Positions 7,310 through 59,271 of a DNA stretch of 64,000 nt are shown in pieces. This DNA is from Gemmatimonadales bacterium (GTDB lineage: Bacteria > Gemmatimonadota > Gemmatimonadetes > Gemmatimonadales > GWC2-71-9). The DNA is taken from positions 60,750 to 124,749 of the forward strand of contig JBDTMI010000004.1 in assembly GCA_039934355.1 (NCBI GenBank), written 5' to 3'. Under the pieces are notes generated by a model, which saw only the letters and a program-made list of their open reading frames with translations, searched no databases and had not been told where the DNA came from. The position numbers and the translations under genes are program-made. Positions within the stretch are counted from its first letter, which is position 1. Every line of letters starts with the position of its first letter.

Positions 7310-7313
7310 CCCG

Positions 7314-9089: not shown

Positions 9090-9261
9090 GGCAGAGCTCC
9101 CGAAGGGGTGGCCGTGCGGTGTGGTCTAGCGACTGAGCAGTGCGGGATGACGCGGCGCCGCGGGGGCGAGCGCATGGCACGCCGGGAAAGACAAAGGGAG
9201 TGTCCCAGGCACCCCGAAGCGACACTGGACATCGCTTAGCGCTGCTACCTCTCGGTCCTGA

Positions 9262-25490: not shown

Positions 25491-26560
25491 CAGGCGATGA
25501 TTCCGCCGCCGAGCACCTGGTGATCGGCGGCATAGAGAACGCCGGACTGCCCCGGCGTGATGGCCCGGACCGGTGTGGCCAGAGCGAGGTCGAGTCCATC
25601 GGGGCCGCGCGAGATGACCGTGGCGGGCACGGCGCGCGAGCGGTAGCGGATCTGGGCAAGGCAGCTGTCGCCCTCCTGCAGTGGTGTCGCCAGCCAGTTC
25701 AGTTCCTCGAGCCGCAGTCGGTGACCGAGCAGGTCCTCCGCCGAACCGACCACCACCTCACGCGTCTCTGGCCTGATCGCAACGACGAACCGCGGCTCGG
25801 CGCTGCCACCGGGCAGGCCCTTCCGCTGGCCGATGGTAAATCGGGCGAAGCCGGCGTGCTCGCCAATCCGCTCGCCACTGGTCGTCACCAGCGGCCCCGG
25901 TGCCAGCGCCGGTGCCTCGGCCGGCAGGTGCTCCTCCAGCACGGACACGTAATCGTCGTTTGGCACGAAGCAGATTTCGACCGATTCCGGCTTGTCCGCG
26001 GTCACGAGTCCGAGGCGGCGCGCCATGGCCCGAGTCTCCACCTTCGTGAGCTCGCCGACCGGAGTCAGCATTCGGGCCACGACCGCCCGGTCGATTCCCC
26101 ACAGGAAATAGCTCTGATCCTTCGCCGGATCGCTGCCCCGGTACAGTTTGCCCTCACGCGCGGTGGCGTAGTGCCCGGTCGCAATTCCGTCACAGCCCAG
26201 CGAGTCGGCGTGGGCCAGCAGGTCACGGAACTTGGTGAATGAGTTGCAACGCACGCAGGGAATCGGGGTCCGCCCCCGGCTGTACTCCGACACGAAGTTG
26301 CCGATCACGTCCCGGCTGAACCGGTCCTCGAGATTCAGCACATAGTGCGGAATCCCGAGCGTGTGGGCGACATCACGGGCGTCATTGATGGAATCGAGGG
26401 AGCAGCAGGGACGATCGGGGACGCTGTCGCCATAGCAGAACAGCTTCATCGTCGCGCCGATCACGTCGTACCCCTGGTCGACGAGCACCGCGGCCGCGAC
26501 GGAGCTGTCCACGCCGCCACTCATGGCCACCAGGACCCGGCGCTTGCGTGGATCAGCCAT
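25490..26560 (-). CDS. mnmA: tRNA 2-thiouridine(34) synthase MnmA
   Basis: The ATG at 26560 gives 356 aa. PP-loop VLVAMSGGVDSSVAA, CCS..D and catalytic Cys regions (RCNSFTKF). The ORF track's upstream extension to 26824 is Pro/Ser-rich and implausible. Confidence 0.95.
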   Translation of the reverse strand: MADPRKRRVLVAMSGGVDSSVAAAVLVDQGYDVIGATMKLFCYGDSVPDRPCCSLDSINDARDVAHTLGIPHYVLNLEDRFSRDVIGNFVSEYSRGRTPIPCVRCNSFTKFRDLLAHADSLGCDGIATGHYATAREGKLYRGSDPAKDQSYFLWGIDRAVVARMLTPVGELTKVETRAMARRLGLVTADKPESVEICFVPNDDYVSVLEEHLPAEAPALAPGPLVTTSGERIGEHAGFARFTIGQRKGLPGGSAEPRFVVAIRPETREVVVGSAEDLLGHRLRLEELNWLATPLQEGDSCLAQIRYRSRAVPATVISRGPDGLDLALATPVRAITPGQSGVLYAADHQVLGGGIIA

Positions 26561-27728
26561 GCAGCGATCCGGCGGCATGGCGCAGGGTGTTGATGGTGGC
26601 GGGGACAACGGAGGCGGCGCGGGCGATGTCGGCGCTGGTGGTTTCCCAACCGAGACTGAATCGGATGGCGCTATGGGCGAGATCGGGAGCGATCCCCATC
26701 GCGAGCAAAACGTGCGACGGTTCGATGGCTCCGGTGGCACACGCCGAGCCTCCGGACGCGGCGATGCCGGCAAGGTCGAGATGCATGAGGAGTGACGCCG
26801 TGTCCGTACCGGGGACAAGCACATTCAGGACGTGAGGGGCACGTTCCTCCGATCCGCCGACCACCACGAGGTCGGGGATGCCCGCCCGAAGCGCTGCGGC
26901 GAGCTCCTCGAGGAGGCGACGCAGGCGTGCCGATTCCTCGGCCACGTGACCGGCGGCAAGTGTGGCGGCCCGTCCAAGGCCGACGGCGCCGGCGATGTTC
27001 TCGGTGCCGGGCCGCAGTCCGCGCTGCTGGCTCCCGCCGTGGATGAGCGGTGCGAGCCGCGAGCGATCGCGGACCAGAAGGGCGCCGATGCCCTTCGGGG
27101 CACCGATCTTGTGGCCCGAGATGGTGGCGAGCCCGATCGGATGATCACCGAGTGTGAACGGCACCTTGCCGAACGCCTGCACCAGGTCGGAATGAAAAGC
27201 GACACCGGCGGCCTCCGCGCGACGGGCGATCGCGGCGACGGGTTGGATGACGCCAGTTTCGTTGTTTACCAGCATCACCGACAGCACTGCCGGCCGCTCG
27301 GAGAGGATGCGGTCCAGCACGCCCATGTCGATCAGGCCATGGCTCGTCACCGGGACGACCCGCTCGGCACCACCCAGATGAGTGACTTCGTGCGCGGCAG
27401 CAAGCACAGCCTTGTGTTCCGTGGCGGCGACCGCGACCAGCATCCGCTCTCCGCGATCCCGGGCGGACAGGGCACTCCCGATGATGGCGAGGTTGTTGGC
27501 CTCGGTTCCCCCCGAGGTGAACACCACACTCCCGGGCTCAACTCCAAGTGCGGCCGCGACTTCCCGACGCGCTCCTTCGAGCGCCGCATGCGCGTCCCGC
27601 CCGAAGCGATGACCACTGGAGGGGTTGCCGAACAGCTCCCCGCCCAACAGCGGGAGCATGGCCTCCAGCACCTCCGGACGGACCGGAGTCGTGGCGGCGT
27701 GATCGAGGTAGACCGGCGGGAAATTCAC
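26553..27728 (-). CDS. Cysteine desulfurase (NifS/IscS/YrvO-like, class V aminotransferase)
   Basis: 391 aa. VYLDHAATTP N-terminus, PLP-lysine motif SGHKIGAPKGIGAL, C-terminal SGGSACA active-site Cys loop. Overlaps mnmA by 8 nt. Confidence 0.95.
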   Translation of the reverse strand: MNFPPVYLDHAATTPVRPEVLEAMLPLLGGELFGNPSSGHRFGRDAHAALEGARREVAAALGVEPGSVVFTSGGTEANNLAIIGSALSARDRGERMLVAVAATEHKAVLAAAHEVTHLGGAERVVPVTSHGLIDMGVLDRILSERPAVLSVMLVNNETGVIQPVAAIARRAEAAGVAFHSDLVQAFGKVPFTLGDHPIGLATISGHKIGAPKGIGALLVRDRSRLAPLIHGGSQQRGLRPGTENIAGAVGLGRAATLAAGHVAEESARLRRLLEELAAALRAGIPDLVVVGGSEERAPHVLNVLVPGTDTASLLMHLDLAGIAASGGSACATGAIEPSHVLLAMGIAPDLAHSAIRFSLGWETTSADIARAASVVPATINTLRHAAGSLHG

Positions 27729-27761
27729 CCCCCAAAGATACCTGATCCCCTCCGGCCGCAG

Positions 27762-28478
27762 CTACATGCTCTTTACTTCGAGGGCCACGACGTCATCCAC
27801 CCGGACCGTTTCGTCGGTATGGAACGGCTCGCCATAACGGGTGCGGATCAGAGAGCCGTAGTGCGCGTTCTGCACCTGCACGAGGGAGTAGAGGTCCTGG
27901 CCAGTCGGGAAGATCTCGCCGGCGCTGTCTGCCCCGTCGAACTGGCTCGCATAGCAGCGGATCGCCTGCATCTTCCGCTCGAACTGGGCGCTGATGTCCA
28001 CCACGAAGGTTGGCTTGACCGGATCTTCGCGGTAGGCCAGTGCATAGAGGATCTTCGAGGGTCGGTGCGGTGCCCCAGGTGCATCGTAGCGCGCCAGCCC
28101 AGCCAGAAAGCAGGCGTCGCGGCCCAACTCCGACGCCAGCCGATGATCCGGGTGGCGGCCGACGGGGTAGGGGAGGATCACGACGCTCGGCGCGAAGTGC
28201 CGAATGTGCTCGACCAGGATGCGTCGGGTTGCGTCGGTATTCTGAATCCCCGCGTCCGGAAGCCCGGCGTTCCGGCGTTCCGTCACGCCGAGAATCGCTG
28301 CGGCGCTGGTCGCCTCGGCACCGCGCAGTTCGGCGCTGCCACGTGTGCCCATTTCTCCCGCGGTCAAGTCCAGAATGCCGGTGCGATGGCCCTGATCACG
28401 CGCTCGCAGCAGCGTGCCGCCGCAGGTGAGTTCGATGTCGTCGCGGTGTGCGGCAATGGCGAGCAGGTCGACAGGCAT
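27762..28478 (-). CDS. bshB1: PIG-L/LmbE family deacetylase, BshB1-like (bacillithiol biosynthesis deacetylase)
   Basis: 238 aa. LLAIAAHRDDIELTCGGTL...GILDLTAGEMGTRG pattern matches BshB1 as remembered. Zn-binding H/D residues present. Confidence 0.7.
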   Translation of the reverse strand: MPVDLLAIAAHRDDIELTCGGTLLRARDQGHRTGILDLTAGEMGTRGSAELRGAEATSAAAILGVTERRNAGLPDAGIQNTDATRRILVEHIRHFAPSVVILPYPVGRHPDHRLASELGRDACFLAGLARYDAPGAPHRPSKILYALAYREDPVKPTFVVDISAQFERKMQAIRCYASQFDGADSAGEIFPTGQDLYSLVQVQNAHYGSLIRTRYGEPFHTDETVRVDDVVALEVKSM

Positions 28479-28582: not shown

Positions 28583-29479
28583 CTAGAGTCCGCGCCGCCC
28601 TTTCCACAGCCGCCGCAGCAGCCAGAGGGCTCCGAGGAGCAGCGCACCCAGCGGCACGAAGACGCCCGAGGACGCGATCGCGCCGGCGATGAAGTTGACG
28701 AAATTACGCCATGCCTGCCGGAAGGCCTCGCCGATCACACCGCCACTGCCAACCTCCCCAACCAGCGGGGCCTTTTCGTGGACCGTGATGCTGAGGGTGC
28801 TCATGGAGGCGTGGGCCTTGAGGTAGCGCAGGCGACCCTCCATCCGCTCGATCTCTTCCCGCACCCTGGCAAGTTCGCGCTCGATCTCCAGCACATCCGA
28901 CAGCTTGCCGGTCCGGGTTGCCAGCAGCTCGATCAGCCGCTGCTCCAGCCGCCTGGCATTGGCGACGCGGGCGGTGACATCGGTGAATTCCTCGCCCACA
29001 TCCTGCGCGCTGACGTTCACGAACTCCACCCGACCCAGCGGCGAGAGCCCGTTGACGAGGGCATCGAAGCGTTCGGAGGGCACCTTCAATTCAAGTGTAG
29101 CTGTGCGGATCTGTTCGGCGCCCAGCTGTGTCTGGCTATTGCTGATATAGCCGCCGAACTGCTGGGCGAGGCGCCGCACGGCGGTTATCGCCGGCTCCAG
29201 TGAGTCGATCTCGACACTCGCCTGCCCGGTACGAATGAGCATCGGGCCGGTGGTGGCGGGGTCGTGCGGGACATCGGGAAGGGGCGACTCTCCGGAGACG
29301 GCCTGATCGGCGGCCAGTTCCCTGCTCTCCATACCGCGCGCGACGGACATCGCGGGCGCCGGTGCGGAGGCCACCTCGTCCTTGGTGGCGTTCCCGAATG
29401 TGCTGGTCGGGGCGCCCTGGCCACAGGCGACCAGCAGGATGAGCGCGCCGAGTACGGCGTGGCGGAGATTGACCGACAT
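28583..29479 (-). CDS. DUF4349 domain-containing lipoprotein
   Basis: The ATG at 29479 gives MSVNLRHAVLGALILLVACGQ (lipobox LVAC). The central region LELKVPSERFDALVNGL...VSAQDVGEEFTDV...RLEQRLIELL and a C-terminal TM segment fit the DUF4349 pattern. Confidence 0.75.
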   Translation of the reverse strand: MSVNLRHAVLGALILLVACGQGAPTSTFGNATKDEVASAPAPAMSVARGMESRELAADQAVSGESPLPDVPHDPATTGPMLIRTGQASVEIDSLEPAITAVRRLAQQFGGYISNSQTQLGAEQIRTATLELKVPSERFDALVNGLSPLGRVEFVNVSAQDVGEEFTDVTARVANARRLEQRLIELLATRTGKLSDVLEIERELARVREEIERMEGRLRYLKAHASMSTLSITVHEKAPLVGEVGSGGVIGEAFRQAWRNFVNFIAGAIASSGVFVPLGALLLGALWLLRRLWKGRRGL

Positions 29480-29571
29480 GAGGTGGCTGTCCGGGTTGGG
29501 GGTGCGTGGGGATGCGCCGGTTGCGAGATGTTGCACATCGATCGTGAGGATTGCTCGGCGTCCTTACCGTC

Positions 29572-30810
29572 CTATTCGTGCCTCAACGCCTCCACCGGGT
29601 CCATCGCGGCGGCTCGATTCGCCGGGATCAGGCCAAACGTCAGGCCGATCAGGACGCTCACCAGCGTCGCGAGGACGGCGCTCCAGAGCGGGACACCCGA
29701 CTGGAGGCCCAGCACCACCTTGAGCAGTTGGCCTGCGCCGAGTCCCACCAGGATGCCGATCAGGCCCCCGATCAGGGTGAGGGTAGCGGCCTCCACCAGG
29801 AACTGCCAGAGGATTTCCCGATTGGTCGCGCCGAGCGCCTTGCGAAGCCCGATTTCGCGGGTGCGGTCCGTGACCGACACCATCATGATCGCCATGACGC
29901 CGATCCCCCCGACCAGCAGGGCGACGCTCGAGAGCGCCACCATCACGGCGAAGAACGCCGTGGTCAGGCTGCTGATGGTATCGAGGATCTGGTCCTGGGT
30001 GATGATGTCAAAGGTGTTGGGGAGGCCCGGCCGCAGGCGTCGCACCTTCCGCAACGCGGCGATGGTGAGGTCGGTGGCGACCGGAACCGGAATCTCAGGC
30101 CAGGCTTTGACAGAAAGGAACAGGCCGTTGGTCTCGTCGTAGCGGTAGTTGTACTTGGCGGTGCGAAAAGGAATGATGGCCCCGGTCTGCTGACCCGGTG
30201 GCTCGAAGATATTCTCGGGGCGCTGATAGATCCCGATCACGGTCAGGGCCACGCCACCGATCCGGATGCGCTTGCCCAGCGGATCGATCCGGCCGAACAA
30301 CCGTTCCGCCGACTCCTCCTCCACCACGGCGACCGGCTCCCCCGTCAGTTCGGAGACGGCGAAGAATCGCCCCCGGAGGAGGGTACCGCCCAGGATCTCC
30401 ATGTAGTGCTCGTCCGCGCCATAGACCGAGACGGTCTGCGTCGAGGCGTCCTGGTACTCCATCTTGACGAACAGCTGAACCCAGATTCCCGCGTACTGGA
30501 TCTCAGGCACCCGTCGGACGGCCGCGGCATCGCTTTCCTGAATCACGGGGCGGATCCGGACTTCGTACGGCAAGTTGTCCGGATTGAGCGGGGTCTGGGA
30601 AAAGAATCGCATGACATAGAACGCGGTGGGGCCGGCGGTGCTCATCGCGTTGAAGATCTGGGCCCGGATACCTTCGACGATCGACGCCATGGCCATCACG
30701 GTGGACACGCCGATGACGACACCCAGGATGGTGAGCGCGGAGCGGAGTTTGTTGGCCCGCAGGGAGTCCAGCGCGATCGCGACGCCTTCGTCGATATTGC
30801 GGAGGATCAT
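29572..30810 (-). CDS. ABC transporter permease, MacB/FtsX family (type B paralogue, copy 2)
   Basis: 412 aa. N-terminal TM (ALDSLRANKLRSALTILGVVIGV), large periplasmic domain, C-terminal FtsX 3-TM module with ERTREIGLRKALGA and DPVEALRHE. Confidence 0.9.
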   Translation of the reverse strand: MILRNIDEGVAIALDSLRANKLRSALTILGVVIGVSTVMAMASIVEGIRAQIFNAMSTAGPTAFYVMRFFSQTPLNPDNLPYEVRIRPVIQESDAAAVRRVPEIQYAGIWVQLFVKMEYQDASTQTVSVYGADEHYMEILGGTLLRGRFFAVSELTGEPVAVVEEESAERLFGRIDPLGKRIRIGGVALTVIGIYQRPENIFEPPGQQTGAIIPFRTAKYNYRYDETNGLFLSVKAWPEIPVPVATDLTIAALRKVRRLRPGLPNTFDIITQDQILDTISSLTTAFFAVMVALSSVALLVGGIGVMAIMMVSVTDRTREIGLRKALGATNREILWQFLVEAATLTLIGGLIGILVGLGAGQLLKVVLGLQSGVPLWSAVLATLVSVLIGLTFGLIPANRAAAMDPVEALRHE

Positions 30811-32051
30811 TCTGCCCTGAGCGCGGTGATCGGGTCCAGACGGGCGGCCCGGGTCGCGGGATAGACGCCAAAGAGGATGCCGGTCCCCGCCCCCAGCGCG
30901 AGCGCCAGCCCAATGGACCAGGAAGTGACCCGGGCGGGCAACGGGGTGAATTCAGCCACTGCCGCGCTCAGCAGCCAGCCCCCGGCGACACCGGCGATCC
31001 CCCCGAGCGTTGACAGCACGATGGCCTCGACCAGGAACTGGCGACGGATGTCGCGCCGGGTGGCGCCGAGGGATTTGCGGATGCCGATTTCGCGGGTCCG
31101 CTCATTCACCGACATCAGCATGATGTTCATGATCACAATCCCGCCCACGACGATGCCGATGCACACCACGGCGGGGACCACCGTGAACAGGACCTTGGTC
31201 AGGCTCTGCCAGAACGCCACCAGGGCATCGGCCTTGTCCACCGAGAAGTCGTTGTCTTCGTCGGGCCGGAGCCGATGGGCCAGGCGCATCGCTTCTTCCG
31301 CCCGATTCATCGCCGCGGTGAGGTCCGCGCCATCGGGCATTTTCACCGATACCGTGGTGGTCTTCCGCCGGCCGTAGAGCATCTCGAATGTCGTGATGGG
31401 GATCAACGCGAATCCGTCAAACGACTGGCCCAGGACCCGTCCTTTCTTGGCCGTGACGGCCTTGATGCTCATTTCCCGCCCGGCGATCCGGATATTCCGC
31501 CCGATGGCCTGCTCCGGGCTGCCGAAAAGCTTGTCGGCGACATCGAAGCCCACCACGGCGACCAGCCGGCGTTCCCGGATGTCGGGGTCCGTGAGCGGCG
31601 TGCCCGCCGCGAAGCGGTAGTCCTGGACCGTCTGATAGGGCGGGGTGACACCGAAGATGAGCACATCGCCGACGGTGCGGTTCCGAAAGGAAATATCGCT
31701 CGTCGGAGTGGGCCAACCGGACTGAATCGAGACCGCCCTCGCGTCGGGAATCGCCCGCTGCACCGCCTCGGCGTCCAGCCGGGAGATCCGGGGCCGCTTG
31801 GCAATCTGTCGGACTTCATCGTTGCTCAGCAGCCCGATCGCAATCGGGGTCCGGCGCACCTGGAAGGCGCTGGTGCCGATGACGGCCCCAGTGACATTCT
31901 CCTTCACATAGGCGTTCATCCCCTGAATCACGGCGACCACAGTGACAAGGAATCCAACCGACACAATGATGCCGAGGAGAGTGAAGAACGAACGGAGCTT
32001 GGCGGTGAGGATCGACTGGACGGCGAGGCGGAACGCTTCGGCGACAGGCAT
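30807..32051 (-). CDS. ABC transporter permease, MacB/FtsX family (type A paralogue, copy 2)
   Basis: 414 aa. MPVAEAFRLAVQSILTAKLRSFFTLLGI, ERTREIGIRKSLGA, DPITALRAE. 4-nt overlap with the downstream permease. Confidence 0.9.
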   Translation of the reverse strand: MPVAEAFRLAVQSILTAKLRSFFTLLGIIVSVGFLVTVVAVIQGMNAYVKENVTGAVIGTSAFQVRRTPIAIGLLSNDEVRQIAKRPRISRLDAEAVQRAIPDARAVSIQSGWPTPTSDISFRNRTVGDVLIFGVTPPYQTVQDYRFAAGTPLTDPDIRERRLVAVVGFDVADKLFGSPEQAIGRNIRIAGREMSIKAVTAKKGRVLGQSFDGFALIPITTFEMLYGRRKTTTVSVKMPDGADLTAAMNRAEEAMRLAHRLRPDEDNDFSVDKADALVAFWQSLTKVLFTVVPAVVCIGIVVGGIVIMNIMLMSVNERTREIGIRKSLGATRRDIRRQFLVEAIVLSTLGGIAGVAGGWLLSAAVAEFTPLPARVTSWSIGLALALGAGTGILFGVYPATRAARLDPITALRAE

Positions 32052-32095
32052 GGGGGAAAGATAGCTGGAACGGAGTGGACGGTAGAAAGGGGAGC

Positions 32096-32173
32096 GACGG
32101 CAGGGGCGGTAGGGACGGTAGAGGAACGATACCGTCCTTACCGTCTATTAGCGTCCCTGCCGCCCTTGCCGTC
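32096..32173. repeat. Long imperfect palindrome built from GACGG(T/C)A(G/A)GG units, between permease pairs
   Basis: Positions 32096-32117 pair with 32152-32173 (22 positions: 20 Watson-Crick plus 2 G-T). A further copy of the unit lies just upstream of the left arm and two more, in reverse orientation, lie inside the 34-nt loop. The right arm includes the stop codon of the 32173..33414 gene. Confidence 0.7.
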
Positions 32174-33414
32174 TACTCGTACCGCAACGCCTCCACCGGA
32201 TCCAGCTTGCTCGCTTTGTTCGCCGGATAGAGCCCGAAGCAGATGCCGGTGATTGTCGATGCGACAACCGCGACCATGACGGACCAGAGCGGAACCTGGG
32301 CGGGAATCGGGGTGAACTTGTTGATCCCCACGGCGATCAGGCCGCCCAGGATCATGCCCGCCAGGCCGCCCACCAGCGTGAGCGTCGCCGCTTCGATCAG
32401 GAACTGGAACATGATTTCGCGGCGGGTGGCGCCCAGCGCCTTGCGGACCCCGATCTCGCGGGTGCGCTCGGTGACGGAGATCATCATGATCGCCACCACT
32501 CCGACGCCGCCCACCATCAACCCGACACTGGAGAGGGCCAGCATCACCACGAAGAAGCCGCTGGTCACGCTGTTGAAGCTCTCCAGCAGCTTGTCCTGGC
32601 TCACCAGCGAGAAGTTGTTGTCCTGCGACGGCTTCAGCCCGCGGTAAGCCCGCAGGGCCGCAGTTACCCGGTCCTGCGCCTCGGCCACGGTGAGCTCCGG
32701 TTCCGGGATGACCGCGAACATCATCCACCCCTTCCAGTAGTCCACTACCTTCGTGAACGTGGAATGAGGCATGACCATCATCGGCGACTCCGAATCACCG
32801 AAGAGGCTCTTGGGCTCGCTGTAGAGGCCGACGACCTGGAAGGGTTCGCCGGCGACCTTGATCCGCTTGCCGATCGGATCGAGGCCGGGATAGAGCTGCT
32901 CCGCCAGCCGATCGTTGATGACCACGACCCGGGAGTTCGCGGCGAACTCCAGCTGGGTGTAGTTCCGTCCCGCCACGATCGTACCCCCCTGCGTCAGGAT
33001 CCAGTCCGGGCTGAACCCCTGAATGTCCACCGAACTCAGGTTGACGTCACCGGCGCTCACTGGCCCGTTCGCGTTCTCCCGCCAGGTGACGCTCCGGAGG
33101 CCAGACACCTGCTGCAGCATCTTCGCTTCCGCAACATTGAGATGCGGATTGCGCCGCCACGGCGACATCTCGTCGGAGCCGTCGCTGATATGGAGCCCAC
33201 CCTGGAAATACCGGAAGACGAAGAAGGTCTTGGGGCCGAGCGTTTCGATCTGGGCCGTGACGCTGCGGTTGACTCCGGTGATCGCGGCGGCCATGGCGAT
33301 CACGACCATCACTCCGATCGCGACGCCCAGAATGGTCAGCGCGGCGCGGACTTTGTTGCCCCGGAGCGAATCCAAGGCGATGCCAACACCTTCGAAGACG
33401 CGGCCAATGGACAT
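32173..33414 (-). CDS. ABC transporter permease, MacB/FtsX family (type B paralogue, copy 1)
   Basis: 413 aa. GIALDSLRGNKVRAALTILGVAIGV, ERTREIGVRKALGA, DPVEALRYE. Confidence 0.9.
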   Translation of the reverse strand: MSIGRVFEGVGIALDSLRGNKVRAALTILGVAIGVMVVIAMAAAITGVNRSVTAQIETLGPKTFFVFRYFQGGLHISDGSDEMSPWRRNPHLNVAEAKMLQQVSGLRSVTWRENANGPVSAGDVNLSSVDIQGFSPDWILTQGGTIVAGRNYTQLEFAANSRVVVINDRLAEQLYPGLDPIGKRIKVAGEPFQVVGLYSEPKSLFGDSESPMMVMPHSTFTKVVDYWKGWMMFAVIPEPELTVAEAQDRVTAALRAYRGLKPSQDNNFSLVSQDKLLESFNSVTSGFFVVMLALSSVGLMVGGVGVVAIMMISVTERTREIGVRKALGATRREIMFQFLIEAATLTLVGGLAGMILGGLIAVGINKFTPIPAQVPLWSVMVAVVASTITGICFGLYPANKASKLDPVEALRYE

Positions 33415-33420
33415 GGGGAC

Positions 33421-34662
33421 CTACTCCGCCCGGAGGGCAGTGATCGGGTCGAGCTGGGCAGCCCGGCTCGCGGGATAAACGCCAGCAACCATGCCCACCA
33501 GCATGCCCACGCCGACCCCGACCCCAATCGACCAGGGCGCGACCGCGGCGGGAAGCGGGGTAAACGCGCGGACCAGGTAGGCCAGCCCGATGCCGGTCGC
33601 CACGCCGAACATCGCGCCGACCGTGGACAGCGTGGCACTCTCGATGACGAATTGGGCCAGGATATCGCGCCGCTTGGCGCCGAGCGCCTTGCGGATGCCG
33701 ATCTCGCGGGTACGCTCCGCCACGGCCATCAGCATGATGTTCATGATGACGATGCCGCCAACCACCAGCGAGACGGCGACCAGCAACGGCAGGGCGGTGA
33801 TCAGGACCTTCGAGATCTTCTTCCAGCCTTCCAGCGCGCCCGAGGCGTTCTGCAGGTCGAAATTATTCTCCTGCTCCGGCCGGAGCCCCCGGCGGGTTCG
33901 CATCAGCGCCTCGGTTTCGCCCATTGCGGCCAGCATCAGCGTCGGGTTGGCCGCCTTGATCTCCAGTTCGTCCAGGACATTCAACGGGCAGATGTAGCGA
34001 CGGGCCGGCGCCCGGAACGGCATCACCGCGAACTTGTCGAGCGAAATGCCGAACAGCGTGCCCCGCTTGGCCGCGACCCCGATCACGCGATAGGGCAGGC
34101 CCGCGATCATGACGACCTTTCCGAGCGGGTCCTGCCCTTCAAACAGCTTCTCGCCGATCTCGCTGCCCACGACCAGCACCGGCACGCCGGCCCGCACTTC
34201 CTGCGGGGTGAAGATCCGGCCGCTGGCAATGTCGACGTTCTTGATCTCGAAATAGCTGGGCTCCGTGCCCATCAACTCGATGTCCTTCGCCTGCTTGCCG
34301 TTGTACATCAGCGTCATGCGGTCGGAGCAGTACTTGGCCGTCACCGCCGGCGTCTGCAGCCGTTCGGTGATGTAATCGGCATCGGCGTAGCTGATGCGCG
34401 GGCGGCGCTGCCAGGCACGCCAGGTCTCCTCGGTGGTGTTGCCGGTGTTGATCCCCGGCTGGCGCCGGAGCGTGAAGGTGTTCAGGCCGATCAGCCGGTT
34501 GGCGAACTGATCCTCCATGTACACGTTCATGCCCTGGACAATCGAGACCACCGCGATCAGAAACGTCACCCCGATCAGCACGCCGATCAGGGAGAAGAAG
34601 CTCTTGAGTTTCTGGGACACGATGGTGCGGAGCGCCATCCGCACCGCCTCAAAGACTGGCAT
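33421..34662 (-). CDS. ABC transporter permease, MacB/FtsX family (type A paralogue, copy 1)
   Basis: The ATG at 34662 (MPVFEAVRMALRTIVSQKLKSFFSLIGV) gives 413 aa. ERTREIGIRKALGA, DPITALRAE. Starts 1 nt after the ATPase stop. Confidence 0.9.
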   Translation of the reverse strand: MPVFEAVRMALRTIVSQKLKSFFSLIGVLIGVTFLIAVVSIVQGMNVYMEDQFANRLIGLNTFTLRRQPGINTGNTTEETWRAWQRRPRISYADADYITERLQTPAVTAKYCSDRMTLMYNGKQAKDIELMGTEPSYFEIKNVDIASGRIFTPQEVRAGVPVLVVGSEIGEKLFEGQDPLGKVVMIAGLPYRVIGVAAKRGTLFGISLDKFAVMPFRAPARRYICPLNVLDELEIKAANPTLMLAAMGETEALMRTRRGLRPEQENNFDLQNASGALEGWKKISKVLITALPLLVAVSLVVGGIVIMNIMLMAVAERTREIGIRKALGAKRRDILAQFVIESATLSTVGAMFGVATGIGLAYLVRAFTPLPAAVAPWSIGVGVGVGMLVGMVAGVYPASRAAQLDPITALRAE

Positions 34663-34663
34663 C

Positions 34664-35365
34664 TTATGCCGCCACCCGGGTGTTGGGGGTATCGCTGTGG
34701 AGCAGGCCGTCCCGCAGGACAACGACCCGCTCGGCGTGTTCCGCGATGCTCGGTTCGTGGGTCACCACGATGATCGTCTGGCCTTCGGCGTGCAACTCGG
34801 CGAACACCTTCATGATCTCCTCGCTGGTCGTGCTGTCGAGGTTGCCGGTCGGCTCGTCGGCCAGGAGGATCGAGGGCTCGTTGACCAGCGCCCGGGCGAT
34901 CGCGACCCGCTGCCGCTGGCCGCCGGACAGCTCGTTCGGCTTGTGGGTCATACGGTGTTCCAGCCCCACTCGTGTCAACGCCTTGACCGCCCGCTCCCGC
35001 CGCTCCCGGGACGACACCCCGGCGTAGACCAGTGGCAGTTCCACATTGTGCAGTGCCGTCGCCCGCGGCAGCAGGTTGAAGGTCTGGAACACGAAGCCGA
35101 TCTCCTTGTTCCGCACCCGAGCGAGCGCATCGTCCGACAGCCGGGAGACCTCCTGGCCGTTGAGCCAGTAGCTCCCCCCGCTTGGCGTATCGAGGCAACC
35201 GATCAGGTTCATGAAGGTGGACTTGCCCGAGCCGCTCGGCCCCATGATCGCCACGTACTCGTTGCGGCGGATGGTCAGCGTGAGTCCCCGCAGCGCCAGG
35301 ACCCGTTCCGCGCCCATCACGTATTCGCGCGCGAGCGTCTCCACGTGGATGATGCGGTCGCTCAT
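34664..35365 (-). CDS. ABC transporter ATP-binding protein (MacB/LolD-type stand-alone NBD)
   Basis: 233 aa. Walker [11 protein letters not shown]-loop, signature [15 protein letters not shown], Walker [13 protein letters not shown]. Confidence 0.95.
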
Positions 35366-36636
35366 GGCTTCTTGCCCTTGGCCGAATCACTCACGGCGGC
35401 CTTCACCTTGGTGCTGTCCTTCAGGTCGCGGATGGCCTGGTAGGTGCCGGCGACGATCGTCTCGCCCGCCTTGACCCCCTCGAGGACCTCGAAATACTCG
35501 TCCCCCGCGATGCCGACCTTCACCGGACGGAACCTGGCGATCCCGCCGGTCACCACGAACACGCCTTCGGCTTCCTTCTTCTTGCGCGAGGCACTGTCTC
35601 CCGGCACGGCCGGCACGGCTTCGTTGGGCAGCTTCTGGTGGTCGCGCACCGTGAGCGCGATGATCGGTACTGCCAGCGTTCCGCGCCGCACGTCCGTCAC
35701 GATGCGGGCGGTGGCGGAGAGATCCGGCCGGATATCCTTCGGCGGATTCGTCAGCGTGATCTCCACGTCGAAGTCCACCGCCCGGTCGCTGGAACCCGAG
35801 GCCGTCGAGGTGGAGGTGAGCTGAGCGCTGTTGGCGATCTTGGTGACCGTGCCGACGAAGGTCGAGTCGGGAAAGGCGTCGATCGAGACCTCGACCGAGT
35901 CGCCCTGGGCCAGCCGCACCACATCGGTCTCATCCACCTGCACCTTGGCGAGGATCACCGAGAGGTCCGCAATCGTCATGAGCAGGCCGACGTCGCGCGA
36001 GAAGGTGCCGGGCACCGCGACTTCCCCCTCCTCCACCGACAGCCGGGTGATGCGCCCCGAGATCGGCGCCACGATCCGGGTCTTGCGGAGGTTGTCCTCT
36101 GACTCCTGGAGGCTGGCGCGCGCCTGATCGACCGAGGCCTGACTGGCGTTCAGGTTCGCCTCCGCCACGGCATAGCCCGTCACCGCCTGCTCCACCGATT
36201 CCGTGGTGATCAGGCTGGTGTTGGTCTTCTGCAGCTCGAGCGCCCGGTCGCGGGCCCGGCGGGCCTGGTCGAGGTTCGCCCGGGCCCGGAGCAGATCGCT
36301 CTGCGAGGAGGCCAGGAAGGCCTGCGACCGGCTGACCGCCGCCTGGTAGATCGCGGCGTCGATCTGGATGAGGAAGTCGCCCTTGTGGACGTAGTCGCCT
36401 TCCTTGACGCCGAGCTTGGTGATCCGGCCCTGGATGTCGGACAGGACGTCGACCTTCGTGTCCGGTTCGATCTTGCCGCTGGCCGTCACCACCGCCACGA
36501 GATCGCGGGTGCCGACCTGTTCGAGCCGGACCTCGACCGCCTTGTTCTTGCTCTTGGCCGCACCGAGCGCGGCAATGCCGCCCACCACGACCACCAGCAG
36601 CCCGGCGATCAATCCCAGCTTCATACGACGCGACAT
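35362..36636 (-). CDS. Efflux transporter periplasmic adaptor subunit (HlyD/MacA membrane fusion protein family)
   Basis: 424 aa. N-terminal TM anchor, lipoyl/barrel-sandwich segments flanking a long coiled-coil ([11 protein letters not shown]...[17 protein letters not shown]). 4-nt overlap with the ATPase gene. Confidence 0.9.
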
Positions 36637-36654
36637 GGTCTCTTCCTCTGTTGG

Positions 36655-38178
36655 CTATTGACGGAGCGGGCGACCGACAGCTGCTTCGAGCGCGGCGAGA
36701 GTCTTGTGGTAATCGTAGATCGCGTTCACATAGTCGCCCTCGGCGCGCTGCACCGAGTTCTGGGCGTCGGACACCTCCAGTGCGGTGCCGCTGCCCAGCC
36801 GATACCGGTCCTGCGCCAGGCGGAGCTGGTCGCGGGCCGCGTCGCGGCTCTGCGCCTGCACTGCGATGGCCCGGAAGGCGGTGTTGAGCCCGAGGTAGCG
36901 CCCGTGCACGTCGCTCTCGACTTGCAGCGCCTGGGCCCGCACACCCTCGTCCGCATCACGGGCCTGCTCGCGGGCCTGCTGCAGCCGGAGTGACCGACCG
37001 AAGCCGGTGAACAGCGGCAGGGAGATTGTCAGGCTGGCGCCGAAAGGCTGCTTGGTGAAGTCGAACGGGAAGGCATTGTTGCTGTTCGTGATCGCGCGCC
37101 GCGCCTGGGGCGTGAGCGCCGTGCCCGTCCCATTGAGCCCCGCCGCGGTGAAGCAGGAGGCCGGTCCACTGAGCGTATGGCCGGGAATGCCGGCCTGTAG
37201 CGTGTCCTGGAAATTGCAGCTTGCCGCGGAGCCGACCGCGCCAGCCAGTCCCTGGCTGAGCAGCAGGCTGCCGTCAGTCGCCTGCTGCGTGAAACCGCTC
37301 CAGCCCGCCCGCATCGAGAGACTGGGGAGGAAGGCGGTCTTCGCCGAGGTCACGCCGACATCGGCCTGGTGCCGCCGGGCTTCCAGCGCACGGATGGCGG
37401 GGTTCTGGTCCTTCGCCTGGGTCAGCAGCGTGGAGAGGTCGTACCGTGGTTCCTGCACCGGGAACGAATCGCTCAGCGCAATTTGTTCGAGCGCGACCGG
37501 CGGCGTAATCCCGATCCGCCGGAACAGCTCCAGCTTCGCTTCGGCCTCGGTCTGGACCGCGCGCAGCAGCGCCACGTCGGATTGGGCCTTCAGCACTTCG
37601 GCCTGCCGCACCTCAATCAGTGTGCCCTGGCCGACCCGATACTTCGCGCTGGCGAGATCCAGGAAATTCTGGTTCCGTTCCACCTGCTGCCCCGCCACGG
37701 CCACCTGCGCCGTCGCCTGGAGCACGCTCAGATATTGGGTCGTCACGCTGAAGCGGAGGCCGCTCTCCTCGTTCGCGATGTCCTCATCAACCGCGCGCTG
37801 GTTGGCCTTCTGTTCCCGCGGGGCCACGAGGCGCCCACCATCGATCTGCCACGAGAGTCCCGCGCTGTAATTGGAGCCCACCACCGCGGAAGTCTGGCGG
37901 ATGAAGCCCGATCCGAAGTTGGCCGACCCGGCGCCGGTGTAATCCGCACCGGCGGAGACCGAGGCACCCGGCAGCAGCTGACCGTACGCGTTCCGCACCT
38001 GCATCCGGGCGGTCGCGGTGTTGTTCAGCCGTTGCTGATACAATGGATTGTGATTGTGGGCCTGCTGCAGCGCCTCGCTCAGGCTGAGCGTGGCAGCGGT
38101 CGGTACTTCCACCGGTGCCTGTGCCCTGATAGATGCCGGCACAAGCAGGACGGAGACGATGAGCCAGCAGCGTCGCAT
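36655..38178 (-). CDS. TolC family outer membrane efflux protein
   Basis: The ATG at 38178 gives signal peptide MRRCWLIVSVLLVPASIRAQ. Two-repeat OEP architecture with a typical LSLSEALQQA start and a C-terminal YHKTLAALEAAVG end. Confidence 0.9.
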   Translation of the reverse strand: MRRCWLIVSVLLVPASIRAQAPVEVPTAATLSLSEALQQAHNHNPLYQQRLNNTATARMQVRNAYGQLLPGASVSAGADYTGAGSANFGSGFIRQTSAVVGSNYSAGLSWQIDGGRLVAPREQKANQRAVDEDIANEESGLRFSVTTQYLSVLQATAQVAVAGQQVERNQNFLDLASAKYRVGQGTLIEVRQAEVLKAQSDVALLRAVQTEAEAKLELFRRIGITPPVALEQIALSDSFPVQEPRYDLSTLLTQAKDQNPAIRALEARRHQADVGVTSAKTAFLPSLSMRAGWSGFTQQATDGSLLLSQGLAGAVGSAASCNFQDTLQAGIPGHTLSGPASCFTAAGLNGTGTALTPQARRAITNSNNAFPFDFTKQPFGASLTISLPLFTGFGRSLRLQQAREQARDADEGVRAQALQVESDVHGRYLGLNTAFRAIAVQAQSRDAARDQLRLAQDRYRLGSGTALEVSDAQNSVQRAEGDYVNAIYDYHKTLAALEAAVGRPLRQ

Positions 38179-38296
38179 CGAACGATCCTGTGGTTGAATA
38201 AGGGAGTACGGCCGAAGTCGCATACGGAGAGGGGTTCCAACGAGTTTCAGGATGGGACGGGTGATGAAGCAGGGCCGGCGTGCCGGCCAGCCGAAA

Positions 38297-38953
38297 TCAA
38301 TTGGGGGCGCGGACCGCCTCCAGCCCGAGGCTGGGAACGGAAATGCTCAGCAATTCGCCGTTGGTTCCCAGGTGAATCTCCGCCTCCACCTCACCGGTCA
38401 GGCGGATCAGGCTGCCGGTGGCGGTGGGGGAGCGCCGGGCGGTGAAAACCACACGGCGGGCCTCAGGCAGGACGACGGCAGTGAGTGCGCTCCCGGCCTC
38501 GGTGGCGAGCGCGGCCGCCTGCAGATAGGGAGCAAAGACGCTGTCGGCGAGGATGATGAGGGTGGCTCCACCAGGCAGTTCCGTCGCCTGATCGGCACCA
38601 CGCGCGACCCGGCGCACCGTCAGGCGATTGCGCTTCTGAACGGCGTACGTCTGTCGGCCGCTGACCGCACCGCGGGACTCCAGCTGGAAGGCGAACTCCT
38701 CGCCGCTGGCTCGATCGAGGCTGGCGGTCAGCTCGGGCGCCGGACGGGGGCCGTTATACACCACATGGGAGGTGAGCTTGATGCCCTTGGCGGTGGTGGT
38801 CACGCTGAAGGTTTCCGTGCCGACATCCCGATCCCGGGCCCGCACGAGCAGTGTGCCGGTGTCGGTGGCCTGTGCGGCCATCGGCCCCGCGGTAAGCCCC
38901 GGCGCGAGGAGTCCGAGACCGAGTCGAATAATGACGTGAAAGGAAGGGCGCAT
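38297..38953 (-). CDS. Hypothetical secreted protein (first gene of the minus-strand efflux cluster)
   Basis: 218 aa. Signal-like N-terminus (...LLAPGLTAGPMAAQA). Beta-rich composition, coding-like codon bias. No family recognised. Confidence 0.6.
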   Translation of the reverse strand: MRPSFHVIIRLGLGLLAPGLTAGPMAAQATDTGTLLVRARDRDVGTETFSVTTTAKGIKLTSHVVYNGPRPAPELTASLDRASGEEFAFQLESRGAVSGRQTYAVQKRNRLTVRRVARGADQATELPGGATLIILADSVFAPYLQAAALATEAGSALTAVVLPEARRVVFTARRSPTATGSLIRLTGEVEAEIHLGTNGELLSISVPSLGLEAVRAPN

Positions 38954-38963
38954 GCGTCCTCAA

Positions 38964-38969
38964 TATAAT
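38964..38969 (+). promoter_or_regulatory. Perfect TATAAT hexamer, candidate -10 box for the giant kinase gene
   Basis: TATAAT read at 38964-38969, in the 65-bp divergent spacer between the 38953 (minus) and 39019 (plus) starts. No convincing -35 element. A conspicuous AT hexamer in very GC-rich DNA. Confidence 0.3.
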
Positions 38970-39018: not shown

Positions 39019-42000
39019 ATGATTGCTCCGAGCGTGAACGCAGCCCGTCGTGCCGCGTGGCTGGTGATGGCCGCAACCGTGGTCGCGGCCGAATGGCTGC
39101 GGCAGCCGGCCCCCTGGTGGGGGATTGTCGCGGTCGGGCTGACGATCATCGGGCTGCTTCTCGCGCGACGCGCGGGGTTGCGGGTCTGGCTAGTCGCGGT
39201 GGCGACAGGGGCGGTCGCCAGCGCAATCGTGCTGGGCCAGTCGCACATGGGACGAGTCGCCGCGGAGTGGCCGGTGGAGCGGGAGCGTCGGGTCACGGAG
39301 GTCTTCCGGCGCCTGAGTCGGGAACTGCACGCGACGCTGCTGCAGGTCGACAATCTGGCTCGCTCCGCCCTCCCGCTCGCCGACGCCGACCGGACCGTCG
39401 CATTCTCCCACCTCGACCGCGAGCTGCCGAGGGACGGGCCAGAGATGGCGGTGGCTATTCTCGATCCGACTGGGATGCCGTGGGCCTGGGCCGGACGCCA
39501 GCGCCTGGTCCCGGAGCCTGAGGGCGATTCGCTCGCCGCGCGGTTTACCCGATTCTACGCTGTGCTCGAAAGCCGGCGCCGGGCACCCTCGGGTCGGGTG
39601 GTGGTCGCCACCGTCCTGGTCTGGGCCGATTCCGCTGTCCCCCGTCCCGACCGGAGTCTGGCCGCGCGCTTCGGAGCGGAGGCCGGTGTTCAGGTCGAGG
39701 TATTCCCGCCCGGCGGTGCGCCTCCCAGCCGTGATGTATTCGATTACTCCGAGCCGACCACCGCCGGCGATCGACTGTTGTTCAGTCTCCTCCCTGTCGC
39801 GCCGGAAGAGGCGGCGGTACAGACCGAGGTGAACAACGCGGCCGCGGCAGGTGTCGCGCTCACCCTCGTTCTGCTGCTTGCGGTCGGGCTCGTGACGGCC
39901 CAGGCGTCGCTGGAGCGCTTCCTTCTCCTGGCGACACTCCTCTGGGCGGTGCTGCGCGCCCCACTCGGCGCGGCGGTGGGTTTCGATGACCTGTTTTCCG
40001 CTGGGACATTCTTCCGCGGGTCATTCCGTCCGTTCTCGAGTTCTGCCGGCAACCTGCTGGTGACCGGCAGCGTGCTGCTGATCCTGGGCGTCTGGCTCTG
40101 GGGGCGACGTGGACCGCTGCCTCGGTGGGGCGCGGCAATTGGTGTGTTGCTACTGCTGGCCACCCCCTACCTCATCAGCGATCTCGGGAGAGGGATTTCT
40201 CCGCCGGTGACCGGAGTGCCACCCGACCTCTGGATTACCTGGCAAGTCAGCCTGACGATGGTCACGGCGGCCATCGTGCTGCTGGCCGGGGCTCTGGTCT
40301 GGCGCGCACTGCCGCTGACCGGCGGTCCGGGCTGGATCGGCGTGGGAGCGGCCTGTGGGATTGCGGCGGCGGCGGCGGGTCTGCTGCTGTGGGAACCACG
40401 TGCCGGTTGGCCTGAGTGGTATCCGCTCCTCTGGTTTCCCGCCCTCCTGCTGGTGGCCCGCCCCGGGCCACGCTGGGCGGTGCTGCTGGCGACCTCGATT
40501 GTCGCTGGATCGGCTGCCGCGCTGGTGACCTGGGGCGCGGAACTGGATGGCCGGCTCCTCGCAGCCCAACGCGACCTCGCCCGGCTCGGTGACGTCGAGG
40601 ATCCCCTGGCGGTCCCGCTGCTCGAGCGACTCGGCGATGATGCGGTGCAGGGCATCGAGCCCACGGCGGCGTCCACCCTCTACCTGCTCTGGCGTGCCTC
40701 CGATCTCGGTGGACAGGAGTTTCCCGTGCGCCTGGCGCTATGGAACAGGGACGGCGTCCGCCTGGATGAGCTGGCGCTCGATTCGGTCGACGTGCCGACC
40801 TCCTTGCTCTCCGCGCTGGTGCTCAGTCTGGACTCCACCCAACCCCGCACCGTGGTCCCGCTGTTGCGCGTGCCGGGCCGCCACTATGTGCTCCTGCAGC
40901 ACCTGCCGAGCGGGCGGATCCTGACGGTCGTCGCGGGGCCGCGCTCCCGCCTGCTTGCGCCGGGGCGCCTCGCCCGCCTCCTGCGGCGGCCCGACGCCGG
41001 CCCGCCGTTGTACGAAATGTCCCTTTCCCCTCCATTCGAGTCCGGCAGAGTCCGGCCGGTCGCCGCCGCGTGGGAGCGCAGCGGAACCCGGCTCCGGATC
41101 GACCGCCTGCTGACGCTCCCGGGCGGCAATCGACACGTTTACGTCGTGGTGGGGCAGGGCGCTTTCTCGCTGCTGCTGGTGCGCGGTGCGCTGCTGACCG
41201 CCCTCGATCTCGTCGTGCTGGCGCTGCTCTGGTGGGTGACGGTGCTTCGTCCCGGATCGCTGCGGCGATCGGTCGAGGTCCGCCGGAAGGCGCGCTCCTT
41301 TCAGGTGCGGCTCGCCCTCACACTCGCGGCGTTTTTCATCGTCCCTGCCGCGGGCTTCACAGTCTGGGGACTGGGGCGACTCACGGATGAAGTCGATCAC
41401 ACCCGTGATCTGCTGATCTCCGCGGCGCTGCGGGATGCGGTGCTGACTGCCGGGGGATTGCTGCGGGAACCGGGCGACTACCTCGTCCAGGGACTCGGCG
41501 AGCTGTCCAACCGGCTGGAAGCGGACCTGCTGCTCTACAGCGGCGGTCGCCTCATTGCGACCAGCGCGCCAATCCTTGAGGACCTGTCGCTGGTCGAACC
41601 GCTCCTGGATGCGCGCGTGTTCCAGCGTCTCGCCCTCGGCGACGAACTCGAGCTCACCCGGCAGGCCACGACCTACGTGGCCCCGGTGCGGGTGGGATAT
41701 CGTGTGGCACAGGCGGGCCCACCTGGCGGAGTCGGCATTCTGGCGACGCCGCAGCTCGCCTATGACTGGGCCCGCACCCAGGACCAGCGCGATCTCGCCG
41801 CGGTACTGCTGCTCGCCTTGCTTACCGGGATCGGCGCATCGTTCCTCGGCGCGCAGTGGGCGGCGCGCGCGCTCTCCCGGCCCGTCGCCGATCTGCGACG
41901 CTCGGCCGCTGCCATCGGACAGGGCCTTCCGCTCCCCGCCGTGGCGATGCCGCCGGTCGAGTTCGAGCAGGTATTCGTCGCCTTTCAGCGCATGGCGGCA

Positions 42001-59064: not shown

Positions 59065-59065
59065 C

Positions 59066-59185
59066 GGTCAGCAGTCAGCGGCCAGCATTCAGCGGCCCTC
59101 CAGTCACCCCGCCGGGGCTCGCCGATTAGCGGTCGTCGTCGCCCGATCGACACCTGCTGAATGCTGACGGCTGAACGCTGAAAGC
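59066..59185. repeat. 120-bp imperfect palindrome with arms made of (T)CAGC pentamer iterations
   Basis: An 11-bp perfect core (59083-59093 with 59156-59166, CAGCATTCAGC) extends outward to 59068/59181, about 26 positions per arm with a few mismatches. 62-nt loop. Begins 2 nt after the aldehyde dehydrogenase stop. Confidence 0.75.
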
Positions 59186-59271
59186 TCCATGCCAATTGCT
59201 CCTTGCGCCCCTTTTTTCGCCCGGCTAAGGTTCTCCAGTAGAATTTTCCTGCCGGTGGTGAGGCCCCGCAC

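Follow-up and report, generated by a model that had tools for sequence, protein, structure and literature searches.

A stretch of 64,000 nucleotides from a Gemmatimonadales soil bacterium (contig JBDTMI010000004.1, hereafter the window) carries on its minus strand a gene cluster whose content is that of a type VII (MacB-family) ATP-binding cassette (ABC) tripartite export system, export itself being predicted from the genes. The window has a G+C content of 65-70% and its nearest relatives are metagenome-assembled genomes (MAGs) of the Gemmatimonadales. Read along the minus strand, the cluster begins with the gene of a 218-aa secreted protein and continues with genes for an outer-membrane protein (OMP), a membrane fusion protein (MFP), a nucleotide-binding domain (NBD) and four permeases, here called A1, B1, A2 and B2, after which come a DUF4349 gene and bshB1. 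The analysis concerns the permeases, which fall into two types and appear to be used as A+B pairs.

The OMP gene (36655-38223) encodes a TolC-family outer-membrane channel of 522 aa if read from its first ATG, and its product matches Pfam OEP with an E value of 7.6e-53. Other gene callers place its start at Met16 (38178), which gives 507 aa, and the protein matches TIGR01844 (type_I_sec_TolC) with a score under the cut-off. The MFP (35362-36636) is a MacA/YknX-type periplasmic adaptor, anchored in the membrane by its N-terminus. It matches Pfam HlyD_D23, HlyD_3 and Biotin_lipoyl_2, exceeds the cut-off of TIGR01730 (RND_mfp; 160.8 bits against 94.9), aligns with MacA (PRK11578) at E 2.4e-35 and has Beta-barrel_YknX and YknX_C among its precomputed domain matches. 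The NBD (34664-35365; Pfam ABC_tran) is an ABC ATPase of 233 aa of the MacB/LolD/FtsE type, with the NBD part of MacB as its top NCBIfam match (E 1.4e-80) and LolD next. The first permease pair consists of A1 (33421-34662, 413 aa) followed by B1 (32173-33414, 413 aa) and the second of A2 (30807-32051, 414 aa) followed by B2 (29572-30810, 412 aa). All four permeases contain MacB_PCD (PF12704, E 2e-31 to 4e-36) and FtsX (PF02687, E 1e-20 to 2e-24) with scores above the gathering thresholds. A search of the window for further FtsX permeases or related ATPases found none beyond this set, so the NBD is unique in it. The initial annotation had listed these genes as a MacAB-TolC-like tripartite pump with a single, separate ATPase; all of them are present on the minus strand at the positions it gave, and the OEP, HlyD, ABC_tran and MacB_PCD plus FtsX matches bear its reading out.

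The junctions between the permease genes differ in length. A gap of 6 bp lies between A1 and B1, with B1 in frame with A1, and the stop and start codons of A2 and B2 overlap by 4 bp (ATGA). The spacer between B1 and A2 measures 121 bp.

Two permease types and their pairing

Over their whole length A1 and A2 share 40% identity and B1 and B2 share 41%, and the comparisons of an A with a B give 33-35%. A neighbor-joining tree of 142 permeases from 32 loci supported the split between A and B, and also the A1, A2 and B2 clades, in 100 of 100 bootstrap replicates, and the B1 clade in 98 of 100. Its shape, ((A1,A2),(B1,B2)), is the one predicted for the duplication of an A+B unit. Both the two permease types and the two-gene duplication that the initial annotation had read from the A-B-A-B order are therefore upheld by the identities and the phylogeny.

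Region-wise identities, computed over 27 four-gene loci, show where the types differ. The N-terminus and first transmembrane helix (TM1) are 51% identical between A1 and A2 and 54% between B1 and B2, against 29-37% between an A and a B; the corresponding values for TM2 are 38%, 55% and 25-30%. The TM2-TM3 coupling loop is the best conserved region, with 87% for A1-A2, 76% for B1-B2 and 56-62% between types, so that identity among all four permeases is 56-87% in the loop as compared with 23-29% in the periplasmic domains. In the latter, A1-A2 and B1-B2 stand at 29% each and A-B comparisons at 23-26%, which makes the four periplasmic domains almost equidistant. Nine alignment positions separate every A from every B (71 + 71 sequences): TM1 accounts for three of them, TM2 with its cytoplasmic end for five and TM4 for the last, and the periplasmic domain is free of them. 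In the published structures of MacB the dimer interface is made by TM1 and TM2. The A/B dichotomy is thus modest in size and is seated in the membrane and cytoplasmic parts of the proteins, outside the periplasmic domain. The distinction drawn in the initial annotation consequently holds for the permeases as whole chains, which are not equidistant, and fades in their periplasmic domains, which nearly are and carry no type residues. Mean identity within orthogroups is 68% for A2, 63% for B2, 60% for A1 and 59% for B1; the second pair is the better conserved of the two and A2 the most conserved of the four permeases, and the more variable A1 clade is also the one that duplicates.

The locus was surveyed in one genome per species. 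The search with A2 yielded 80 loci, all in Gemmatimonadota, with A2 orthologues of 61-93% identity; among the best 120 matches of a protein homologue search with A2 there were close Gemmatimonadota orthologues only and no distant contexts. The gene order is kept throughout as (218-aa gene)-OMP-MFP-NBD-A1-B1-A2-B2-(DUF4349)-bshB1. Fifty-one Gemmatimonadales loci are complete, that is, the array lies wholly within the contig, and they hold two pairs in 45 cases, three pairs in 3, four pairs in 2 and a single pair in 1. In 51/51 of them A and B genes are equally numerous and alternate strictly; apparent exceptions to the equal counts were frameshifted genes in long-read assemblies. The A-B-A-B array of the window is thereby seen to be conserved among relatives, with one to four pairs. 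Arrays of at least three pairs occur in two separate lineages. The additional pairs fall in the A1 and B1 clades, and the A and B subtrees are congruent, which indicates that pairs were duplicated as units. The one-pair locus (L045) reads OMP-MFP-A2-B2 and is devoid of both pair 1 and the NBD. The junction lengths of the window are also general: the A-to-B junction has a median of 3 bp and is at most 10 bp long in 79% of cases (n=140), and the median B-to-A spacer is 85 bp, 7% of these spacers being no longer than 10 bp (n=69).

Two kinds of departure from the common layout were found. The NBD gene is absent from the operon in seven loci (L042, L043, L044, L045, L047, L056 and L079), where the MFP gene abuts A1, or A2 in L045. 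These loci occupy at least four separate places in the A2 tree, pointing to repeated loss or relocation of the NBD gene. In four other loci (L009, L068, L073 and L075) B1 and A2 are parted by insertions of 1-5.6 kb. The inserts of about 5 kb in the Gemmatimonadaceae loci L073 and L075 contain an opposite-strand open reading frame (ORF) of 946 aa with FtsX similarity (6287-9127 and 6294-9134, respectively, both on the minus strand), possibly a duplicated ADOP-like permease. L075 has in addition an extra, distant B-like gene at 3146-4378 on the plus strand.

Outside Gemmatimonadota, a profile built from the four permeases matched 224,614 representative clusters at E ≤1e-3 and 22,461 at E ≤1e-30. 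A tree of the 150 top-scoring representatives puts the A clade and the B clade of Gemmatimonadota on opposite sides, each with sisters from outside, and among the members of these sister clusters that carry names are Candidatus Polarisedimenticolia (Acidobacteriota) and Verrucomicrobiae. In 7/7 outside contexts that were read the permease is directly followed by a second one. The order was OMP-MFP-NBD-A-B in L088 and MFP-NBD-A-B in L090 and L091; L087 and L089 hold orphan A-B pairs, and the short contig L086 has an NBD and an A-like permease, overlapped by the first part of a second gene. Partners in these outside pairs share about 40% identity, and wherever typing was possible (6/6 pairs) the upstream gene is better matched by the A model and the downstream gene by the B model. 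Uneven arrays exist outside Gemmatimonadota, as the seventh context, the P0339 contig (JGI 3300041966), from a cluster that includes a Verrucomicrobiae member, carries genes for Yip1, OMP, MFP and NBD and then three MacB_PCD plus FtsX permeases of 405, 423 and 423 aa. Based on the outside sisters of both clades and the ordered A-then-B contexts, the ordered A+B pair is an old, widespread and little-studied sub-architecture, and the speciality of the Gemmatimonadales is its tandem multiplication behind a single set of the other components. A plasmid collection searched for outside multi-permease loci had almost none: its 222 records of homologues, from Proteobacteria, Deinococcus and Bacillus, are almost all single-permease, and the two contexts read were (OMP)-MFP-NBD followed by one permease. 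Four of the best 150 representatives, P0175 (824 aa), P0258 (799 aa), P0270 (851 aa) and P0317 (838 aa), are two-unit MacB_PCD plus FtsX proteins that leave no length for extra linker helices; genuine fusion and read-through during gene calling are both conceivable origins. Because the two halves cannot be assigned cleanly to A and B, these proteins were not used as "Rosetta stone" evidence for an A-B partnership.

The boundary between the two pairs

The B1-A2 spacer can fold into a long RNA hairpin (32092-32178, minus strand) that overlaps the stop codon of B1. Its minimum free energy is -51.6 kcal/mol (z = -4.2) and none of 200 shuffled sequences folded as well. In almost all related loci this spacer likewise contains a long, near-perfect hairpin, of unrelated sequence and often made of short tandem repeats. 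The hairpin in the window is a candidate terminator or transcript-end stabilizer. Some intergenic spacers hold hairpins in which tandemly repeated short units pair with their reverse complements (e.g. GGTGAACGGTGAAC... and GGACAGATGGACAG...), and dozens of Gemmatimonadales keep the structure, though not the sequence, at the B-to-A spacer; such elements could be terminators without a U tract or a fast-evolving class of palindromic repeats. A similar hairpin element is present elsewhere in the window, at 59063-59186.

Following the hairpin, a TATCTTT box (32057-32063, minus strand) stands 5 nucleotides ahead of the start of A2 and could serve as the -10 element of a leaderless A2-B2 transcript. 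The motif is rare in the window: TAnnTTT has only six sites on both strands, four of which sit 5-8 nucleotides upstream of the start of ORFs encoding 100 aa or more, and 9 of the 32 sites of the shorter TAnnTT (128 kb, both strands) lie 6-9 nucleotides before long-ORF starts. The starts so preceded are 3409, 9419, 11134, 39019 and 54222 on the plus strand and 38953, 32051, 27728 and 23048 on the minus strand; among them are those of the 218-aa gene (38953), A2 (32051), a divergent histidine kinase gene (39019) and a cysteine-desulfurase-like gene (27728). In the related loci TAnnTT was found 5-9 nucleotides upstream of 55/78 A2 orthologues and before 0/383 of the other pump genes (OMP 0/52, MFP 0/60, NBD 0/52, A1 0/73, B1 0/77, B2 0/69); 17/53 bshB1 genes have it too. 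A -10 box located 6-8 nucleotides from the start codon is a recognised signature of the leaderless first genes of operons (PMC6028130), and the TAnnTT(T) box resembles the Bacteroidetes -7 element TAnnTTTG. These sites suggest that leaderless transcripts may be frequent in this Gemmatimonadales genome.

Taken together, the hairpin, the A2-specific box and the leaderless -10 signature indicate that A2-B2, possibly with DUF4349, probably form a leaderless unit of their own, apart from a first unit running from the 218-aa gene through OMP, MFP, NBD, A1 and B1, so that the four permeases would not make up one operon. Concerning the start of the first unit, a TATATT box (38962-38967, minus strand) lies 8 nucleotides upstream of the ATG of the 218-aa gene and is a candidate -10 element for a leaderless transcript, but its promoter is uncertain because such a box precedes only 3/30 orthologues of this gene. 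A generic scan for sigma-70 promoters and intrinsic terminators was uninformative for the locus and counted fewer terminator-like sites than expected. If the boundary proposed here is correct, there is a lesson for annotation in it: a long hairpin followed by TAnnTT 5-9 nucleotides before a start codon may mark the limit of a transcription unit within what looks like a single operon.

The A+B pair as a putative working unit

Four indirect, comparative lines of evidence make an A and a B permease, joined as a heterodimer, the most likely working unit of this system. The A-to-B junctions are tight and the B-to-A spacers long, A and B have co-duplicated in congruent subtrees, and the residues that define the types are found in TM1 and TM2 and none in the periplasmic domain. 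To these is added a strong covariation of rates within pairs only. Partial correlations of evolutionary distances, obtained from distance matrices of 33 genomes, were 0.52 for A1-B1 and 0.68 for A2-B2, the value for OMP-MFP being 0.54; the other permease combinations gave -0.06 (A1-B2), -0.07 (A2-B1), 0.19 (A1-A2) and 0.20 (B1-B2). That the two pairs share the remaining components is suggested by the presence of a single NBD, MFP and OMP, by the conservation of the coupling loop in all four permeases and by the one-pair locus, where A2-B2 come straight after OMP-MFP. It is also in keeping with VarACDEF of Vibrio cholerae, a MacB-type transporter with two permeases and a separate ATPase that works with an MFP and an OMP (PMC5595328).

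We therefore favor, with fair though far from complete confidence, a reading in which A1B1 and A2B2 are alternative heterodimeric modules that share ATPase, adaptor and channel, that differ in their range of cargo and of which the second can be expressed independently. The permeases would dimerize as A1B1 and A2B2, the coupling helices on the cytoplasmic side of each heterodimer would receive two copies of the common ATPase, and the same adaptor hexamer and channel would cap either heterodimer, so that two alternative pumps could be built on one chassis. Identity as A or B, held in TM1, TM2 and the coupling loop, would fix the seat of a subunit in the dimer; the diverged periplasmic domains would set the cargo, taken from the periplasm or the outer leaflet and expelled by mechanotransmission. 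Pair 1 would be co-transcribed with the chassis genes, and pair 2, on its own leaderless transcript after the B1-A2 hairpin, would probably allow the two pumps to be dosed independently. The two LolCE-like heterodimers imagined in the initial annotation survive here as far as the heterodimers go, which best fit the comparative evidence; the likeness to LolCE does not, because the sequences are of the MacB type.

A number of points weigh against this picture. Every solved MacB-type transporter is a homodimer. Linkage of the pair alone could yield both the covariation and the co-duplication, through recombination or transfer in blocks. The seven loci with no NBD gene weaken the idea of one shared NBD, as their permeases are not strictly tied to an operon-encoded ATPase and the NBD can evidently be supplied in trans. 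As to the separate transcript, the B1-A2 hairpin is without a clear U tract, a simple sigma-70 scan gave no promoter at the A2 box, and the TAnnTT box could be a translation signal instead of a promoter. Moreover, Gemmatimonadaceae with three or four pairs have short, hairpin-free B-to-A spacers, from which it follows that their array is probably one operon and that a separate transcript for the last pair is not universal.

The split between the transcription units lends itself to another, unlikely reading, in which only A1B1 belongs to the tripartite pump and A2B2 is a neighboring, separate machine that takes its ATPase in trans and uses neither adaptor nor channel, for lipid or lipoprotein extraction or for the control of periplasmic enzymes in the manner of LolCDE or FtsEX. 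A2 does seem to head its own transcription unit after the hairpin, A2B2 is more conserved than A1B1, orphan A-B pairs with no adjacent MFP, OMP or NBD exist elsewhere (L087, L089), and B1 and A2 can be driven apart, as the 1-5.6 kb inserts of the four loci described above attest. Nevertheless, A2B2 adjoins the pump genes in all 80 loci where the flank is present, L045 has A2-B2 right behind OMP-MFP and no other permease, and the spacers to the preceding pairs in Gemmatimonadaceae are as short as 9-87 bp. The sequences, moreover, are of MacB type and not of LolC/E or FtsX type.

Somewhat less probable still is that each permease forms its own homodimer as MacB does, with four alternative pumps on a shared ATPase, adaptor and channel and with the alternation of A and B as an accident of one tandem duplication. 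Such a state would agree with the solved structures of the family, and it appears to be the common one in it, given that homologues on plasmids of other phyla mostly have one permease after MFP and NBD. It accords poorly with the equal counts of A and B in 51/51 complete loci, in which the gains and the single loss were always pairwise, with the tightly coupled A-to-B junctions, with the pair-specific covariation of rates and with the confinement of the type-specific residues to TM1 and TM2. The A-then-B order is, besides, kept in different phyla by partners that are only about 40% identical.

Free mixing of subunits (A1B2, A2B1) or a larger assembly under one adaptor ring, the mixed complex that the initial annotation had offered as its second option, is improbable: the coupling loop and C-terminal tail are highly conserved in all four permeases and A1 shares its type residues with A2, and B1 with B2, so that cross pairs are not obviously barred and a combinatorial set of pumps is conceivable, but the cross-pair partial correlations are near zero in comparison with those within pairs, translational coupling and separate transcription favor assembly within the pair, and MacA is known to form a hexamer over one permease dimer (PMC8277102).

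The heterodimeric A1B1 and A2B2 modules can be generalized, more tentatively and at somewhat less than even chances, to a cassette system. One adaptor-channel chassis and a promiscuous ATPase, active even in trans, would accept interchangeable heterodimeric A+B cassettes whose periplasmic domains choose the cargo, which number from one to four by duplication of pairs and at least one of which is transcribed as a leaderless unit. If so, specificity would be switched by the cassette that is expressed and not by separate pumps.

The interest of the locus lies in the fact that MacB-type pumps are understood almost wholly from homodimeric examples with a fused NBD. Obligate heterodimers, if confirmed, would provide a natural asymmetric mechanotransmission machine that is widespread in little-explored phyla, among them Gemmatimonadota, Acidobacteriota and Verrucomicrobiota, and their architecture would help to explain the working of asymmetric type VII ABC transporters. 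The system would then be a test case for the division of work between the two halves of the periplasmic cavity, for the service of several permease dimers by one ATPase and one adaptor, and for the growth of substrate range through duplication of a two-gene module. It is experimentally accessible, since cultured Gemmatimonas carry three or four pairs.

Neighboring genes and comparison with known systems

The 218-aa protein at the head of the cluster (38297-38953, minus strand) has a signal peptide without a Cys lipobox. The family of this secreted protein had been left unassigned in the initial annotation and stays so, as no Pfam match was obtained even at E 10 and none was found in NCBIfam or PADLOC. 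It has 54 homologues, of which the few with a named source are all from Gemmatimonadales, and is identical to a hypothetical protein in a Gemmatimonadales MAG; in most related loci its gene immediately precedes that of the OMP. The AlphaFold2 model is all-beta, with 16 strands and one helix (predicted local distance difference test score 88.6). A Foldseek search of this model against the PDB gave nothing at E ≤1e-3, the best match being the DUF1089 protein PA1994 (TM-score 0.44-0.50). A role as LolA-like carrier was rejected, as matches to LolA (Foldseek E about 0.7, TM-score 0.25-0.33) and to LprG were insignificant. Possibly the protein serves the pump as a periplasmic accessory peculiar to this lineage.

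On the other side, the gene of a DUF4349 protein with a lipobox-like N-terminus (28583-29536, minus strand; Pfam E 2.9e-56) sits between B2 and bshB1. The initial annotation had taken this lipoprotein as the second bracket of the cluster. It occurs in about 19 related loci, a minority, and is probably a variable insert and not a part of the pump. The bshB1 gene itself (bacillithiol deacetylase; 27762-28478, minus strand; above the TIGR04001 cut-off) follows B2 in nearly all related loci, often with its own TAnnTT box, and is probably a mere neighbor. The region downstream of the pump (25490-28478, minus strand) comprises bshB1, a gene resembling a class-V aminotransferase or cysteine desulfurase and preceded by a TATCTTT box of its own, and an MnmA-like ORF recognized by eye. 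Upstream and divergent, 65 bp from the 218-aa gene, the plus strand encodes a multi-pass histidine kinase of 1331 aa with C-terminal HisKA and HATPase_c domains (39019-43014). The kinase gene keeps this position in almost all related loci. No response regulator gene is adjacent to it, so that the kinase was dropped as a dedicated two-component regulator of the pump and only its synteny is recorded.

Comparison with known systems places the permeases in the MacB, or type VII, superfamily, as they have a periplasmic core between TM1 and TM2 and a C-terminal FtsX part (TM2-TM4). They align over their full length with MacB structures from three species (E 1e-43 to 1e-49) and with the split permease Spr0695 (5xu1; E 1e-39 to 1e-40), these being the closest structures solved so far, whereas LolC in the PDB is matched by the C-terminal FtsX part only (E 1e-8 to 1e-10). 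Family models for particular members of the superfamily score far below their cut-offs. The LolC/LolE model TIGR02212 gave 31-60 bits (cut-off 362), LolC PRK10814 24-47 bits (473) and LolE 22-33 bits (439); the DevC model gave 20-25 bits against 290 and the FtsX family models 19-33 bits against 225-255. For the MacB equivalog NF007826, which needs at least 966 bits, the permeases reached 150-187 bits and the NBD, encoded by a separate gene, 271 bits. The ADOP model TIGR03434 gave 115-150 bits against 622, each chain of 412-414 aa being a single unit. The only PADLOC matches were trivial ones to the FtsX domain, and a reading of the locus as a defence system was rejected.

The permease arrangements described in reviews are the homodimers of MacB and FtsX, the LolCE heterodimer and fused two-unit forms (PMC5985334, PMC8277102). 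The fused forms show that two non-identical units can form one transporter (PMC5985334); YbbP and the ADOP family (TIGR03434) are of this kind and differ from the locus, whose genes are unfused. Spr0693-0695 and YknXYZ resemble it in having the NBD as a separate protein but have a single permease that forms a homodimer. LolCDE has a separate ATPase, LolD2, and adjacent LolC and LolE of the FtsX fold, which make up the classic heterodimer of the superfamily (PMC5985334, PMC8277102). However, its partner is LolA and it has neither adaptor nor channel. The family-model scores, the PDB matches and the MFP and OMP genes in the locus all led us to reject a LolCDE reading. MacAB-TolC of Escherichia coli, Acinetobacter and Aggregatibacter gives the top full-length matches, periplasmic core included, and has the same type of adaptor, a channel and a presumed mechanotransmission mechanism in common with the locus. 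The gene content agrees as well, with a MacA/YknX-type adaptor and a TolC-family channel in the order OMP-MFP-(NBD)-permease in 51 loci. Yet MacB is a single chain with an N-terminal fused NBD and forms a homodimer, whereas the locus has a separate NBD and four permease genes of two types.

In gene content there is a close likeness to VarACDEF of V. cholerae, which consists of the MFP VarA, the OMP VarC, the ATPase VarF and the 4-TM permeases VarD and VarE; it exports macrolides and Hoechst 33342, confers macrolide resistance and needs the outer-membrane channel (PMC5595328). An adaptor, a channel, a separate ATPase and two different MacB-like 4-TM permeases with large periplasmic domains are common to both systems, a likeness drawn from the published description. 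They differ in the number of permease pairs, one in VarACDEF against two to four here, and in the LysR-type regulator of VarACDEF, VarR. The statement in the initial annotation that the arrangement was not known to have been characterized accordingly requires division, since the one-pair version is VarACDEF (PMC5595328); for multi-pair MacB-type arrays, or for pumps of Gemmatimonadota, our literature search found no paper. The locus is therefore no new kind of machine but an uncharacterized multi-pair variant of the two-permease MacB-type tripartite pump, of which both the components and the one-pair design are known.

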